Shown here: in pieces, positions 5,809-64,000 of the stretch
How positions within the stretch are numbered: position 1 is the first letter of the stretch
How the letters are laid out: every line of letters starts with the position of its first letter
Source: Thainema sp.
Lineage (GTDB): Bacteria > Cyanobacteriota > Cyanobacteriia > Phormidesmidales > Phormidesmidaceae
Direction: 5' to 3'
Assembly: GCA_052168235.1 (NCBI GenBank)
Contig: JBQLZK010000007.1
Location: 97,833-161,832 of the forward strand
DNA length: 64,000 bases
Notes under the pieces: generated by a model
Seen by the model: only the letters and a program-made list of their open reading frames with translations
Told to the model about the DNA's origin: nothing
Databases searched by the model: none
Translations under genes and position numbers: made by a program

Positions 5809-7359
5809 ATGACGATATTTGATCAAACCAATCCTTCCAAAAATCAATCCAAGCTGACACTGCGATCGCAGATCACCCAGACACATTGGATTATTCCAGG
5901 CTTAATCTTTGGTTTAGCCACCATCTTGAGACTCTACGCTTTAGGCGAAGAGAATCTTTGGGTTGATGAAATGAATAGCCTAGAAGACTCCAAGTATTTC
6001 TCTTGGCTAAACCCTGGAGTCAGGCCGCTCTACTACAGCCTGCTTCATATTTGGATGCAGTGGTTCAATGATGAAAGTGGCTGGCGGCTTTTATCAGTGA
6101 TCCTGGGCATTGGTTGCGTCGTCTTGACCTATGACCTGGGCCATCGGCTCTTTGGCAAGAATATTGCCCAACTGTCATCTCTTATGATGGCCATTTCGCC
6201 CATTTTTATTAATCACTCTCAAGAAATCAGGATGTATCCTCTGATGGTCTTTTGGGCGATTTTGGGATCGATTGCGCTACTAGAATACATCGATCGGCCG
6301 AGTTATTGGCGCGTTGCAGCTTGGACAATCTGCCGCCTGCTGGCGATTTTGGCCTTTCCAATTAGTATCGCGCTGCTAGTGCCCGATGGCCTGATTCTAA
6401 TTGTCCGATTCCGCCAGCAGCGCCGTTGGCTGTTTTCCGCTGTCTCAGGCGTATTGTTTATTGGCGCAATGCTCTTGCCCATTGCGTTAACCCAGCTCGC
6501 GCAAAAAGCCCAAGACTACTACGCTCTACACGGAGATGGTGGGGATGAGGCTTCTTTCTCAGTGGTTTCTGTAATTGCCAAACTAACCAGTTTTACCGTG
6601 TTTTGGCCACTGGAAACCCTGAATGATCGTCCCAGCCTGCTGCTGTTCTACAAAGGCATAACGCTGCTTTTGCTTCTCGTGCTCGGTATTAGCCTACTGG
6701 GAATGCGGCGGAATAGGTCACTACAACTTGCGGCAACATGGACAATTGGTGGCCTCGGTTCCGTTCTTTTGGCGGACATTCTCGTTCTGGGTGGCAAAGC
6801 ATGGATTACGCGCTATCTGCTCTTTGCTGCGCCGTTTGTCTTCATTTTGCTAGCCGTAGGTTTATCACGGCTTTGGAGCTGGCATCGCTGGGTCGGTGGT
6901 GCGGTTGCTCTCCTATATATCTTGGCCGTTTGGCAAGGTTTAGCCTACTACTACAGCACGGCCTATCGCGATGACTGGCGCGGATTAGCACAAGCCATCC
7001 AGCCAACGGCTTCTCCCGAAGCGATTGTCTACTATGCACCGGATGACCATTTGCAATATTCGCTGCCGTTCTACTACGACGGTAAGGCTCCACTGCATAT
7101 AGTTAGTCGATCGAATAAAGAACGGGAAGAAGCAACAGTACTAACTCCAGCAGATTTAGCCGATCTGCCCCAGAATCAAGAACGCCTCTGGTTAGCCTGC
7201 TGGTCGTTTTGCCACGACGAAGCCGGAATTGATCTAATCGCCCAAACAGTTTTGGGTGCCGAGGGTACAATCAAATCTCAACAATCTTTTCGAGGTCATG
7301 CTCCGGGTTCCGCCCGACGACTTGAGCTACTGGTTATTGAACCTGAGGTTGCTCAATAA
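5809..7359 (+). CDS. GT-C fold membrane glycosyltransferase (GT39/PMT/ArnT-like)
   Basis: LRLY.LG.ENLWVDE, PLYY.LLH.W and HSQEIRMY motifs; many TM helices. Confidence 0.8.
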   Translation: MTIFDQTNPSKNQSKLTLRSQITQTHWIIPGLIFGLATILRLYALGEENLWVDEMNSLEDSKYFSWLNPGVRPLYYSLLHIWMQWFNDESGWRLLSVILGIGCVVLTYDLGHRLFGKNIAQLSSLMMAISPIFINHSQEIRMYPLMVFWAILGSIALLEYIDRPSYWRVAAWTICRLLAILAFPISIALLVPDGLILIVRFRQQRRWLFSAVSGVLFIGAMLLPIALTQLAQKAQDYYALHGDGGDEASFSVVSVIAKLTSFTVFWPLETLNDRPSLLLFYKGITLLLLLVLGISLLGMRRNRSLQLAATWTIGGLGSVLLADILVLGGKAWITRYLLFAAPFVFILLAVGLSRLWSWHRWVGGAVALLYILAVWQGLAYYYSTAYRDDWRGLAQAIQPTASPEAIVYYAPDDHLQYSLPFYYDGKAPLHIVSRSNKEREEATVLTPADLADLPQNQERLWLACWSFCHDEAGIDLIAQTVLGAEGTIKSQQSFRGHAPGSARRLELLVIEPEVAQ

Positions 7360-59950: not shown

Positions 59951-61180
59951 CTAGGTCTGGGATTGGCGGCAAATGCCAAATACTGAGGTGTAACCATGCA
60001 GGAACGTTGTGCCTTCAACGGGGCCGATTTCACCATTGCAGAAAAAGCCACTGAGAGCTGTTGGACCAATGTAGCGATGGAACAGCTGCGAATCAAAGTT
60101 GGGAGCTTCATAGAGCTGTTCACCCCGTCCCATACAGGCAAACATTAAGGCACCCGCAGGCTGAGTGGCAGCATGATTTTGGGTGTATCGCTCAAGCAGC
60201 AGAGCCAAATCTTCCGCTGAGGTTTTTGCATCTCGGAGGTGGAACTGGATGCGCTGCCCAGACCGAATGCGATCGCCAATTGCGATCGCGCCTGCTCGTG
60301 GATCAACCCCCAATAAATTACGAATCAAAAAGTCGCCTTGTTCCAGATTGCGCTTGAAGCTGCTTTGAGCCACGCCAATAAAGAGGGAATTTTGGGCCAG
60401 TGCCCGATCCTCTTCACTCAGTGTCTGAAAGAGTTCTTGCAGCACTTCCAGCGGTGAACGGAGTTGATCGGGATGGTCGGGATCTTCTAATTCCAACAGC
60501 ACATTGCGCTCACCTTTCGCCACCCGATAGGGCTGACCAATGGGACGACAGCCCTGCGCCACAATCGTATCTAGCACCAGATTTCCCGACAGCGCTACCC
60601 CAATCGTCCCTGATTTGTAATAGGTTTGACCGCAAAACAAACCACTGTCCCCCACCATATCCGTACTGGCCAGCCCTCCCACTTTGACAGAACCGGGATA
60701 GGCAAAATCGAGTCCCTGTAGCAAATTACTAATGCCGGACGACATCGGTGCGCCCAACAGAATGAACTGAGGCTGGGATGCAGGCGATACTCCAACCTGA
60801 TCAATCCACGCATCTGGGGGAGAATCTAAATCAGGCAAATTATCTTCGGCAATATGAAACGTCTGCACATCCACCTCTGGCATAGAGGCTAGACAAAGGC
60901 TGAGGGCTGGATTCGTTTCCACCTCTTGAGTTTGACCCGAACAGTCTCTACCAATGATGCCGCCACCGCTGCAGCCAATCAGGACGGGCAGATCGAGCTG
61001 CTCTTGTAACAGCGGCATCAGCCGAGAATATTCACTCGCAAATGCCGTCGAGATAAAAACCAGACCAAAATTTGCTGGTGCCGATAATGCTTGCTGCGTT
61101 CGTTCCACGACTTCCAACACAGCAGCTTCTAGAGACGGACGAGTTGAAAGGGCATTGGCCCACTGCATAGAATCCGGCAC
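59951..61180 (-). CDS. FIST N/C domain protein
   Basis: GCSGGG, GGLAS, QGCRPIG, FHLRD, F.C.GRG and GFFCNGEIGP...LHGYT. Confidence 0.9.
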   Translation of the reverse strand: MPDSMQWANALSTRPSLEAAVLEVVERTQQALSAPANFGLVFISTAFASEYSRLMPLLQEQLDLPVLIGCSGGGIIGRDCSGQTQEVETNPALSLCLASMPEVDVQTFHIAEDNLPDLDSPPDAWIDQVGVSPASQPQFILLGAPMSSGISNLLQGLDFAYPGSVKVGGLASTDMVGDSGLFCGQTYYKSGTIGVALSGNLVLDTIVAQGCRPIGQPYRVAKGERNVLLELEDPDHPDQLRSPLEVLQELFQTLSEEDRALAQNSLFIGVAQSSFKRNLEQGDFLIRNLLGVDPRAGAIAIGDRIRSGQRIQFHLRDAKTSAEDLALLLERYTQNHAATQPAGALMFACMGRGEQLYEAPNFDSQLFHRYIGPTALSGFFCNGEIGPVEGTTFLHGYTSVFGICRQSQT

Positions 61181-61253
61181 GGTGCCACCTTTGGATCAAT
61201 TACGGTCTATCTCTTCAGTCGTGCCTCCCTCGACTGATTTTGTCATTAGTTTA

Positions 61254-61305
61254 GAATAAGGCATTCCGTAGTGAAGCGGTAGCGGAACGGAGGGATGCCT
61301 TATTC
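61254..61305. other. Hairpin containing the predicted recombination site ATAAGGCA-TT-CCGTA (61256-61270)
   Basis: Perfect 11-bp arms GAATAAGGCAT / ATGCCTTATTC; the site matches both guide segments of the upstream non-coding RNA. Confidence 0.65.
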
Positions 61306-61317
61306 GCGCGCGCGAAA

Positions 61318-61350
61318 ATCCCCCCACCAGCGCGGGGCCAGCGGGGGGAT
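61318..61350 (-). terminator. GC-rich hairpin downstream of the IS110 gene, terminator-like
   Basis: Minus strand ATCCCCCC...GGGGGGAT followed by a short T run. Confidence 0.45.
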
Positions 61351-61376
61351 GATGCTTGAATTATTGAAACTCTGTT

Positions 61377-62582
61377 CTAGCAGAACTGAATCGAAAGGGC
61401 TTTGAACAAATCTCGACTAACGCGAGATGCGGTCATCATAACTCGCTTGTTGCCAGGCAGCTTCTTGTCGAGCTGGCGATAGTAGGCGCGATGCGCTGCT
61501 AAATATTTTTGGTCGGTTAATCGGCTCGACTGAACAACTACCAGCACTTTGACGTGTTGCCATAGGGCAGTACGAGCATAGGACGCGCCGCCAGCAGTCC
61601 ACTCGGATTTATTGCCGCTCTGACTCTGAACCATACCCATACCGAGCGAGAGTTTAAAGGCAGCTTCAGAGCGACGGCGCTTGGTCTTCTTGTTTTTACG
61701 GCGCGAGCTGTCACTATATACATACTCAACTATCGGTTTTCCATCGCTGCCAAGGAACTTCTCAAAGGGAAATATTCGGCTCAGGAGCACGGCCCGGATC
61801 TTTGGGCTAAAACCAAAGTCGTCGAACACCTCTTGGTAGAGACGAAAGCGATCGGCGTTGAGCATCTCGTCAATTACCAGCTCTTGGCGGTACATCTGGC
61901 GATGAAGGTCGCACACCTGGGAGGCGAGCCATGTTGTTGCATCACTCAGACCTGTACCGATAGATTCGCTTAACTTTTGCGATCGCACTTTTTGACCGCG
62001 GACATCTTCACCTGCAATGAAGCGCCAGAGGTTCGGCGGATCAGGGTAGAGATACCAGCGAGGATTCTGGGGTTTTCTGCCGCTAGCGGTTCGGCAAACT
62101 TCAGGCCATTCGGTTGCCAGCTGCGCCCAGAGCCGATTCGTTGTGCTGGTACAAAGTCGAGATAGGCTGTGACGGCTCAACAGCATCTCCCGCAAGTCTT
62201 CAGCATACAGATCGATGAATGCTGACTCATCACTGAAGTTTTCGAGGGTATAGGCTGCGATGCAAACTGGATCGTAGCGGTCTGACTTGTTGTTGAGTCC
62301 TTTATATCCGCGATACTTGCCAATTCGGTGAGTTGGAATAAGCCTGACGATTTTGTTAGCGCCGCGCAACTGGTCGATCCACGGCCTTGAGTAACGGCCT
62401 GTTGGTTCCAGCGCATAGCAATCGGCATCGAGTGAGAGTAAATAGTCAATCCCAGATCTATCGATCTGGATAGATTCGGTTTTATGCCGCTGGGCAAAGC
62501 GCTTCAAATCATTGGGCACTTCATCTAGCAGACACATGGAAACGGACGTTTTACCAACGTCTAAACCACAAATTACAGTCAT
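61377..62582 (-). CDS. IS110-family (Piv/MooV-type) DEDD recombinase / bridge recombinase
   Basis: RuvC-like DEDD residues GLDVGK, ALEPTG and KSDRYD; helical region; C-terminal Tnp domain LGM....QSG with the candidate catalytic Ser, then G....RTALW. Confidence 0.88.
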   Translation of the reverse strand: MTVICGLDVGKTSVSMCLLDEVPNDLKRFAQRHKTESIQIDRSGIDYLLSLDADCYALEPTGRYSRPWIDQLRGANKIVRLIPTHRIGKYRGYKGLNNKSDRYDPVCIAAYTLENFSDESAFIDLYAEDLREMLLSRHSLSRLCTSTTNRLWAQLATEWPEVCRTASGRKPQNPRWYLYPDPPNLWRFIAGEDVRGQKVRSQKLSESIGTGLSDATTWLASQVCDLHRQMYRQELVIDEMLNADRFRLYQEVFDDFGFSPKIRAVLLSRIFPFEKFLGSDGKPIVEYVYSDSSRRKNKKTKRRRSEAAFKLSLGMGMVQSQSGNKSEWTAGGASYARTALWQHVKVLVVVQSSRLTDQKYLAAHRAYYRQLDKKLPGNKRVMMTASRVSRDLFKALSIQFC

Positions 62583-62842
62583 AATGTTCTCTAGCTCAGT
62601 ACTGCATTCTCGTTAAACCCGTCATCAATTGCAGGTCATCACCCCTTTAGAACCCGATCGCTAGAGAGTAGAGGCGCGATCCAGGCCGGATGTCAAACAA
62701 AACCCTTTTAGATACGGGGCGCGATTCAGGCCGCGTGTTCCGTAAACCTAAATAGGTCAATGCCTTATCAAGCCCGAATCGCGGTGTGATGGCTTTGGAC
62801 ACCACCACAGCGAGCGCGCGAAAGCGCTCGGTGTGAGGGTGG
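62583..62842 (-). ncRNA. Predicted bridge-RNA-like guide RNA in the upstream non-coding region
   Basis: Several stems with G-U pairs on the minus strand; a 12-bp stem closes an internal loop with segments AUAAGGCAUU and UACGGAA around a short hairpin, matching 61256-61270. Confidence 0.7.
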
Positions 62843-63100
62843 TTAGCGCTGCTGCTGAGCGATTTTATGGGCGTGGGTGATGAATTGGAGCGTGACGTGC
62901 TCAAGCTGTTCTGGCTGCAAAGTGCGATAGACATCTCCAGCGTCTTTTATAAGAAATTGGTGGACATCAACCTCACTTTGTTCAGTCAACATTGCGATCT
63001 CCACCGCGGCACTTTCTAGGGCTATGACGTAATGCGCAACAGCTTCTAGGAAGCAGGGGTTTAGAACGGAGATACCGGGGAATCTGGGGGAGTCTGTCAT
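62843..63100 (-). CDS. Small hypothetical protein of the phage-like cluster
   Basis: ATG overlaps the upstream stop (TAATG coupling at 63098-63102). Confidence 0.55.
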   Translation of the reverse strand: MTDSPRFPGISVLNPCFLEAVAHYVIALESAAVEIAMLTEQSEVDVHQFLIKDAGDVYRTLQPEQLEHVTLQFITHAHKIAQQQR

Positions 63101-63348
63101 TAGTTGTTGTCCTGTCGGTTCAAACGTTTAACATGCATTTCAGCGGCTGTTAGAGAGCAATGTGCATCCCATTCGTCGGCTTTGGCCTTGTTCTTGATGG
63201 CGTCGATTGCCAGGAGCGCAGATTCGCCAGTGATGGAACATTTACCAGCGCCGGGATAGTAAAGGTCTATCCACATTGCCTCCTCGTCCCATTCGGCATA
63301 GGCGATCTGATCGATGTTGTATGCGTTGCATCCAGTTTCTATGAGCAT
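63100..63348 (-). CDS. Small hypothetical protein of the phage-like cluster
   Basis: Start overlaps the upstream ORF; resembles short phage proteins (YNIDQIAYAEW). Confidence 0.55.
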   Translation of the reverse strand: MLIETGCNAYNIDQIAYAEWDEEAMWIDLYYPGAGKCSITGESALLAIDAIKNKAKADEWDAHCSLTAAEMHVKRLNRQDNN

Positions 63349-63569
63349 TTTTGCTGTGCCTCTCTCATGAGTTCAACGGGGTCAATGAAGACGACTTCAT
63401 ATTCATGTCTGCTGCTAGCTGAGATGCTGATTAGGCCGCGCACGTAGATTTCAGCGTGAGAGCGGAATTTGAAGGCGGCGACGCAATGGGGATGACCGAT
63501 GCAGGGACGGTGATAGACGCGATATTGGAAGCGGGAAACGATATGATTGGCGGTAACTTTGGAAGTCAT
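63339..63569 (-). CDS. Small hypothetical protein of the phage-like cluster
   Basis: AAAGGAG RBS upstream of the ATG; overlaps the next ORF. Confidence 0.55.
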   Translation of the reverse strand: MTSKVTANHIVSRFQYRVYHRPCIGHPHCVAAFKFRSHAEIYVRGLISISASSRHEYEVVFIDPVELMREAQQKCS

Positions 63570-63659
63570 TGGTTATCTACTCCTTTCTAGAATTTTCAAG
63601 TGGGCTTATTTCTCCACAGTGCGATCGCGGGGGTCTTGCGATCGCACTTTTTTCATGAG

Positions 63660-63932
63660 TCAATCTGGTTGCCGAAGCTGGCTAGAATCCCAAGGTTTTT
63701 TTAAGCCGATTTCGCTGAAAGCCTCATCCACGAGATAAAACCGACCATCCTGATCCAAGTCTTCTACCAGGTCGGTTCCCTCACGGATCGCTGTTTGTTG
63801 CAATTGAGTTAGAGGCTTATTCACCTCAATCGCGTATCTAGCAGTCATGCAGCGCAAAGCAGAACGCAGCACGGCAACGGCAAATACAGCGTTCTTATAG
63901 TCTTCCTCGGTAATTTCAATCTCTATTTCCAT
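63660..63932 (-). CDS. Small acidic hypothetical protein of the phage-like cluster
   Basis: 90-aa ORF with ATG start, co-oriented with the other cluster ORFs. Confidence 0.5.
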   Translation of the reverse strand: MEIEIEITEEDYKNAVFAVAVLRSALRCMTARYAIEVNKPLTQLQQTAIREGTDLVEDLDQDGRFYLVDEAFSEIGLKKPWDSSQLRQPD

Positions 63933-64000
63933 AAGCTCGCTCTGGGGTAGTGGTGCGTCAACAAATAGATGACGGCCAGCTAAAGTAAGAAAAACGCTTC

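Follow-up and report, generated by a model that had tools for sequence, protein, structure and literature searches.

We propose, at somewhat less than an even chance, that in an IS110-family bridge-type RNA of the cyanobacterium Thainema sp. the first guide loop has two states, one matched to the junction between element end and flank, and the other an ordinary target-type loop. The predicted RNA is the minus strand of a 218-nt non-coding stretch upstream of a recombinase gene, and lies in the window that we analysed (64,000 nucleotides; contig JBQLZK010000007.1, positions 97,833 to 161,832). From its sequence, this stretch is best explained as the first guide loop and the second loop of such an RNA. 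The 3' half of the first loop would have been tandemly duplicated to give two mutually exclusive closings, which share the left arm and the left guide (here X). In state 1 the proximal right arm would close the loop, presenting X with right guide 1 (UACGGAA) and thereby reading the DNA site ATAAGGCA-TT-CCGTA, and this state would serve the cutting or transfer of the element end, be it by excision, copy-out or direct transfer. In state 2 the distal right arm would close the loop and present X with right guide 2 (UGUUUGA), with UACGGAA and the proximal arm stowed in an inner hairpin; this would be the ordinary target-type loop, and loop B (Table 1) would be the ordinary second loop. We infer that state 1 forms in vivo, that a trigger changes one state into the other, and that each state has its own reaction.

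The gene downstream of the predicted RNA encodes a 401-aa protein that matches PF01548 (DEDD_Tnp_IS110) at 43.7 bits, above the Pfam cut-off of 29 (E 3.2e-11), and PF02371 (Transposase_20, the C-terminal Tnp domain) at 18.1 bits, under the cut-off of 21.3. With a family profile of 26 homologues, residues 3-153 match the N-terminal domains of IS621 (8wt6, E 1.3e-11) and ISCro4 (E 2.3e-10); a second stretch of the alignment with IS621 was not significant, and a single-sequence search of the PDB gave no match to a solved structure. In the profile alignment GvDvgK, lEPTG and KsDryDa of the recombinase are placed opposite GIDTAK, IEATG and KTDTVDA of IS621. Residues E59, D101 and D104 are invariant in the 26 homologues and, on our assumption as to which residues of IS621 are catalytic, presumably mark the region of the DEDD motif; S322 and G323 are invariant across the family. 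This family is small, with 31 proteins in a collection of 5.8 billion, and its members nearest to the window's protein are 84% and 80% identical to it, the remainder being at or below 48%. One scan of genome contigs, with a query made from 10 sequences, gave six related loci (L001-L006), cyanobacterial where named, which with the locus in the window (W) make seven. Recombinase identity to the window is 84% for L001 and 43% for L004, and the recombinase tree is ((L002,(W,L001)),(L003,L005,(L004,L006))). In a plasmid collection one distant relative was found (35% identity), where a hammerhead is present and a comparable hairpin is absent. No Rfam family matched positions 60500-64000 of the window at E values up to 10.

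The two-copy repeat, 45 nt apart, that a sequence-only reading of this DNA had noticed is real. A direct repeat joins 62673-62693 to 62718-62738 (86% identity over 21 nt), the copies of GGCGCGATYCAGGCCG at 62673-62688 and 62718-62733 agree at 15 of 16 positions over the core marked in that reading, and when the 218-nt region was shuffled 2000 times with its dinucleotide content kept, a 16-mer direct repeat with at most one mismatch never arose. One left arm does face two right arms, as had been claimed: whichever copy is the partner, all 12 of its positions form standard pairs, one of them G-U with the proximal arm and two with the distal arm. The duplicated unit is a cassette composed of an inner-stem strand (GGUU), a 7-nt right guide, a 6-nt linker and a closing arm. 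As GGUU is itself duplicated (62748-62745 and 62704-62701), both closings give an internal loop of the same geometry, its 5' side about 12 nt long and its 3' side 13 or 14 nt. UACGGAA and UGUUUGA stand at the same distance from their closing arms, followed by CACGCG and CAUCCG respectively, so that the further claim of a single left guide facing two right guides in equal register is also borne out. Two other arrangements of the repeat were rejected, namely two ordinary loops with arms of their own, which the lack of a second left arm between the copies rules out, and a split-arm three-way junction, with each half of the left arm paired to a different copy and the copies to one another, where the leftover halves were unpaired when folded by hand and pairing between proximal and distal arms is weak and is not preserved in L001. 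No promoter-like site for the predicted guide RNA was found.

Table 1. Features of the guide RNA locus, in window coordinates
Feature	Position	Strand	Basis
Block common to W and L001	61249..63663	minus	81% identity, 2424 aligned nt; right edge 7 nt past X'
Downstream hairpin X-H-X'	61254..61305		inverted repeat, 14 nt, 93%; arms identical or complementary to left guide
15-nt site ATAAGGCA-TT-CCGTA	61256..61270	plus	exact match to X + guide 1
IS110-family DEDD recombinase gene, 401 aa	61377..62582	minus	open reading frame, Pfam and profile match
Loop B, second conventional stem-loop	62588..62667	minus	closed by UCUCUAG/CUAGAGA; inner UGACC..GGGUUU hairpin
Distal right arm (a5)	62675..62686	minus	within copy 62673-62688
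Right guide 2, UGUUUGA (L001: UAACAAA)	62693..62699	minus	position in loop
Long inner hairpin of fold 2	62701..62758	minus	GACC/GGUU, UU.GG/UC.AA, UACGG/CCGUA, GCG/CGC; three pairs compensatory between W and L001
Proximal right arm (a4)	62720..62731	minus	within copy 62718-62733; apical loop of fold 2 inner hairpin
Right guide 1, UACGGAA	62738..62744	minus	invariant in W, L001 and L004
Left guide X, AUAAGGCAUU	62759..62768	minus	hypervariable across relatives
Left closing arm (a3), CGCGAUUCGGGC	62772..62783	minus	complementary to 62720-62731 (inverted repeat); pairing
5' hairpin before guide loops	62800..62841	minus	inverted repeat, 18 nt, 83%; kept in L001
Three small open reading frames, 85, 82 and 76 aa	62843..63569	minus	identity to L001 61%, 90% and 87%

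The minimum free energy (MFE) of the 218-nt region is -72.3 kcal/mol (z -2.5; 4 of 200 shuffles were equally good), and in the MFE fold, fold 2, the left arm pairs with the distal copy and the long hairpin 62758-62701 is formed. RNAalifold on W and L001 likewise gave the distal closing with the long inner hairpin, in a consensus of 51 pairs, 5 of them compensatory; this hairpin, which the sequence-only reading had folded by eye, and its burial of guide 1 and the proximal arm are thus recovered by both methods. The fold 2 loop has 29 pairs, with all 58 cells kept and four pairs changed on both sides, one in the helix of left and distal arms (where pair 62772/62686 is C-G in the window and U-A in L001), two in the inner hairpin and one in its apical stem. 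This level of covariation was reached by 24 of 500 shuffles, and by slid controls to the extent of at most 1, in a comparison made of two sequences only (W and L001) for a structure itself derived from both. Judged by the compensatory pairs of fold 2, the variable stretches that follow CCGUAUC and that lie within the small hairpin loop are structural partners and not guides. Fold 1, with the proximal closing, has 16 pairs and 32 of 32 compatible cells with no double changes, and is uninformative. Compensatory pairs thus number 4 in the distal helix together with the inner hairpin; the proximal helix is 100% paired with 0 informative changes. In naked-RNA thermodynamics the distal closing is the predicted ground state of the loop, fold 1 in the window having -61.2 kcal/mol against -72.3 kcal/mol for fold 2. 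The claim of two alternative folds accordingly stands for the distal closing, which is both the MFE and the covarying one, and falters in the window for the proximal closing, which is 11.1 kcal/mol worse with a pair probability of 0.00. The closings in L001 are nearly equal (-57.6 kcal/mol for fold 1 vs -55.5 kcal/mol for fold 2), and the three possible closings of L004 lie within a spread of 3.8 kcal/mol (-78.1, -78.1 and -81.9). Bistable regulatory RNAs, such as riboswitches and attenuators, also have one strand with two mutually exclusive partners; unlike these, the guide loop has no evident ligand or terminator logic, and its output would be the choice of guide rather than gene expression.

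In bridge RNAs the 5' side of a loop has the sequence of one DNA strand, to which the 3' side is complementary, with overlap at the core (PMC11208160), and by this published geometry AUAAGGCAUU together with UACGGAA reads ATAAGGCA-TT-CCGTA. The sequence concerned, ATAAGGCATTCCGTA, matches the window exactly at one place, plus-strand positions 61256-61270, and equivalent sites stand at the corresponding place in L001 (TTAACGAATTCCGTA) and L004 (TTTATAAATGTTCCGTAA), which upholds the earlier claim that the guides of fold 1 match the junction. Site and guides covary across these three cassette-bearing loci, the match to X and guide 1 being contiguous over 15-18 nt in each. The CCGTA half of the site is conserved among W, L001, L004 and L005, four loci out of seven. 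The X half is hypervariable: X is different in every locus, yet the left guide matches the downstream hairpin in all seven. Between W and L001, X diverges at 3 of 9 positions against 19% overall, and X of L003 is almost wholly different from that of L005, though the RNAs are otherwise near-identical. In six loci X is found three times, in the RNA gene and in both hairpin arms; L002 has the guide-pairing arm only. The guide-matched hairpin lies 60-75 nt downstream of the recombinase stop, and in the window its copies of X fall within 52 nt, both 3' of the recombinase gene. The core of this hairpin, CACTACGGAA, occurs only there, with no copy found beyond the element. Directly after the recombinase stop, and separating the gene from the guide-matched hairpin, is a G+C-rich hairpin with a T run (CCCCCCGC..GGGGGGAUUUU; 61310-61350, minus strand) that is present in all relatives.

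DNA downstream of the guide-matched hairpin showed no relatedness in any of the 15 locus pairs, and the genes there are ordinary ones (FIST in the window; SpoIID, hydrolase and PAPS reductase in relatives), whereas the upstream DNA has small-ORF cargo that gave no Pfam or PHROG match and is partly conserved between loci. Unrelated host genes on the one side and conserved cargo on the other place the 15-nt site at the border of element and host, and suggest that recombinase, RNA and hairpin together are the right-hand end module of larger elements. The FIST-domain gene occupies 59951-61180 with a GTG start, and the element end is 69 nt upstream of this GTG (61180-61249), and so sits in the likely promoter region of the FIST gene; ispE-like and rsmA/ksgA-like open reading frames follow, as judged by eye from translations. 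A search of the window for the empty site of L001 gave no synteny. The host flank of L001 has a glutamine riboswitch (RF01739, 54.6 bits; 6381-6477, minus strand), which is unrelated to the guide loop. The three small open reading frames upstream of the RNA in the window gave no Pfam or PHROG match and look like cargo travelling with the recombinase module. Other small-ORF cargo is found upstream in relatives, common to L003 and L005 and to L004 and L006.

Among the relatives, L001 has the architecture seen in the window, with 12 of 12 pairs between the left arm and both right arms. L004 has an exact 18-nt duplicate comprising core, linker and arm, of a sequence unrelated to that in the window, with 6 of 6 pairs to the left arm. 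The architecture of a shared left guide, which the sequence-only reading had described from one locus, therefore recurs, and its recurrence in L004 with other sequence gives indirect support to the proximal helix. The left arm of L004 has three possible partners, the two copies and a further, outer strand, and in the MFE fold of this RNA a stem GGCUA/UAGCC surrounds the proximal arm at the position of UACGG/CCGUA in the window. There is just one right arm in L002, L003, L005 and L006, and YUACGGAA is absent from the RNA region of L003, L005 and L006. On the recombinase tree the cassette is found in two clades, with W and L001 in one and L004 in the other, requiring two gains or at least three losses; the unrelated arm sequence of L004, in the other clade, makes a double gain likely.

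The second loop is present in the window and in all relatives. Loop B, the closing stem of which has one compensatory pair in the RNAalifold of W and L001, is homologous by eye to loop 2 of relatives without the duplication, and its 3' side is like loop 2 of L004; the two conformers of the first loop consequently need not be a donor loop and a target loop. Loop 2 of L004 and that of L005 each have their own copy of the end-reading element, which in L004 is CUACGGA, and as this is already there in loop 2 the cassette appears to be an add-on to a complete two-loop RNA. The inner hairpin motif occurs in both loops of the window, at 62759-62744 and about 62637-62612, and in the L002 RNA it forms a direct repeat (UGACCUAGCU..GCGGUUU, about 2870-2895 and 2948-2975) with one copy per loop, which suggests an older duplication as the origin of the two loops in this family.

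A hammerhead-type motif (CUGAYGA .. GAAA .. GUH) was seen in relatives just 5' of the guide RNA and 3' of the cargo open reading frames, at 2673-2716 in L002, about 2719-2790 in L003, 2703-2762 in L004, about 2727-2790 in L005, about 1528-1600 in L006 and 1254-1310 in L007. Its stem I has 4-5 of 5 pairs in L003-L007, and the Rfam hammerhead scores, 24.4 bits for L004 and 22.8 bits for L002, are under the threshold of 34 bits. W and L001 are without this motif and have a plain hairpin (62841-62800) in its place. Cleavage at the putative hammerhead would free the 5' end of the guide RNA from the operon transcript. A shallow search of the literature found no paper that links a hammerhead with IS110 or with a bridge RNA.

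These data may also be read without any switch, an unlikely though serious alternative in which the distal closing alone is used, and cassette 1 is a relic of the duplication, an extended inner hairpin or a protein-binding arm with inherited complementarity to the left arm. That fold 2 is both the MFE fold and the one backed by covariation is as this explanation would have it, as are the zero informative pairs and the 0.00 probability of fold 1 in the window. The exact duplicate in L004 could be very recent, and at 19% divergence it is no great surprise that W and L001 have all 12 nt of the proximal arm in common (0.81^12, about 0.08). It is harder to see why a relic would have UACGGAA extend the left-guide match to the site in exact register in all three cassette-bearing loci, when this site-matching guide is the very one that fold 2 buries. 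The presence of the cassette in two clades with unrelated arm sequences, and the near-isoenergetic alternatives in L001 and L004, also argue against a single functional closing and favour the two-state loop.

A quite unlikely alternative holds that X' (61256-61264) belongs to the element, so that X-H-X' with its 7-nt extension would be a subterminal repeat like those of IS1111, the left guide would be of donor type rather than target type, and crossover would occur past TCTAAAC. This heptamer, the 7 nt that follow X', is common to W and L001, after which the two diverge. Loop B moreover has UUCUAAA, which agrees at 7 of 7 positions in the window with the terminal TTCTAAA, yet this match shows no covariation in L001. 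The hairpin of L003 (4259-4342) is a perfect palindrome of about 40+40 nt, and in L002 a 23-bp perfect outer inverted repeat encloses the guide-matched sequence; both would be easier to account for within one molecule, and together with the shared TCTAAAC they are a better fit if X' is element than if it is flank. The subterminal repeats of IS1111 elements are 11-13 bp with terminal extensions of 7 and 3 bp (PMC11187229). On the other hand, the two copies of the repeat here share one end, 24-64 bp apart, instead of standing at either end of the element; the non-coding RNA has the position typical of the IS110 group, upstream of the gene for the recombinase; and X is far more variable than its surroundings, as is typical of target guides. 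The two-state model itself leaves the inner X copy in the hairpin (61295-61303) unexplained.

The sequence-only reading had itself tentatively assigned fold 1 to a donor loop and fold 2 to a target loop with X as common left half, such that integration would regenerate an intact-looking donor site and a far X-TY-AAACA. On this model the inner X copy would be partner to a far-end X, in the manner of the subterminal repeats beside IS1111 donors. This assignment accounts for a single left guide serving two right cassettes and for the intact look of the border site, it gives the inner X copy a role, and subterminal inverted repeats do flank donor sequence in known elements (PMC11208160; PMC11187229), but we consider it very unlikely given that X is on the required strand in none of the seven loci over the 1.4-3 kb upstream of each, that nothing like ATAAGGCATYAAACA occurs in the window, that a separate second loop is found in the window and all relatives, that loop 2 of the cassette-free L003 and L005 has by eye no copy of X despite the same hairpin, and that the second CUACGGA in loop 2 of L004 makes the cassette look like an add-on. 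On the sequences at hand, then, the structural half of that interpretation is supported, and its donor and target conformers are putative.

The predicted partner of guide 2 was likewise not recovered in the window, where the best approach to ATAAGGCA-TY-AAACA has 3 mismatches (5 matches vs 4.1 expected). At the 63663 homology break the plus strand reads TCAATCTG against a predicted TCAAACAA, a 5/8 match, and the second guide of L001 does not fit that locus's own break (about 1/8); as the break may moreover not be the end of the element, it was rejected as the partner of guide 2. Pairing of guide 2, or of guide Y of the relatives, with the inner hairpin arm was also rejected, reaching 7/8 in L001 and in L006 and failing in W, L003, L004 and L005, and the Shine-Dalgarno-like matches of guide Y in L003 and L005 are homologous ribosome-binding sites and were put down to chance. 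The left edge of the block common to W and L001 may be a mosaic break. Since the L001 open reading frames upstream of it are still small and domain-less, the 63663 break is probably mosaic and the far end outside the window, and the far ends of the elements probably lie outside all seven loci. Exactly at this left edge, at 63618-63648 on the plus strand, is a strong terminator-like hairpin with two HIP1-type GCGATCGC palindromes followed by TTTTTT.

As described in PMC11208160, the bridge RNA system of IS621 and other IS110 elements resembles this locus in that a structured non-coding RNA precedes the gene of a DEDD recombinase, that the internal loops have two guides with a 2-nt core in common and an inner hairpin separating them, and that the first loop is followed by a second. 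The present locus differs from that description in having two alternative 3' cassettes for one 5' guide in the first loop, in guides that, at the downstream end, read the strand opposite the recombinase gene, and in its lack of Rfam matches, its C-terminal Tnp domain below the Pfam cut-off and its small-ORF cargo. The seekRNA elements of the IS1111 group (PMC11187229) are alike in their inverted repeats of about 9-11 bp near the end with a 7-nt stretch beyond, and unlike in that here the two copies share one end and correspond to an RNA guide, with the RNA placed upstream of the gene; the repeats at opposite ends and the RNA downstream of the gene that define IS1111 were not found at this locus.

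During excision of IS621 the integrated junctions are hybrids of target and donor halves; each junction spans the two loops in an awkward, X-shaped mode of binding, and excision is weak (PMC13626964). In contrast to that excision complex, one conformer here would hold both half-site guides in a single loop. For CazIS110-1 a second, shorter RNA species is reported to change the junction pathway of the recombinase (10.1101/2025.10.25.684509), whereas here the change would come from an alternative fold of the same RNA. The two-state reading fits both accounts, in which junctions are poor substrates for a two-loop RNA (PMC13626964) and RNA forms redirect the reaction (10.1101/2025.10.25.684509). 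A shallow search of the literature, which cannot prove absence, found no bridge RNA with alternative guide-presenting folds.

In its fullest form, doubtful when all its parts are taken jointly, our proposal is of a bridge RNA with a built-in switch. The left guide with the variable right guide would read the empty target for insertion, and the left guide with the invariant right guide would read the element end, so that one loop would bind the whole junction and excision or transfer would be efficient. The cassette would have been gained independently in two cyanobacterial lineages, and in most relatives a hammerhead ribozyme would cut the RNA out of the transcript of the cargo operon. What directs a bridge recombinase to insertion or to excision is a question left open in recent papers, and a junction-matched loop that a natural RNA presents by refolding would be a simple means of programming directionality, while offering engineers a design for switchable guides. 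If confirmed by probing and recombination assays, the locus would be of real interest to those who study bridge recombinases. Tandem right-guide cassettes served by one left guide would widen the known architectures of bridge RNAs, and the locus directs attention to a cyanobacterial clade whose recombinase and RNA serve as the end module of larger, cargo-bearing elements.
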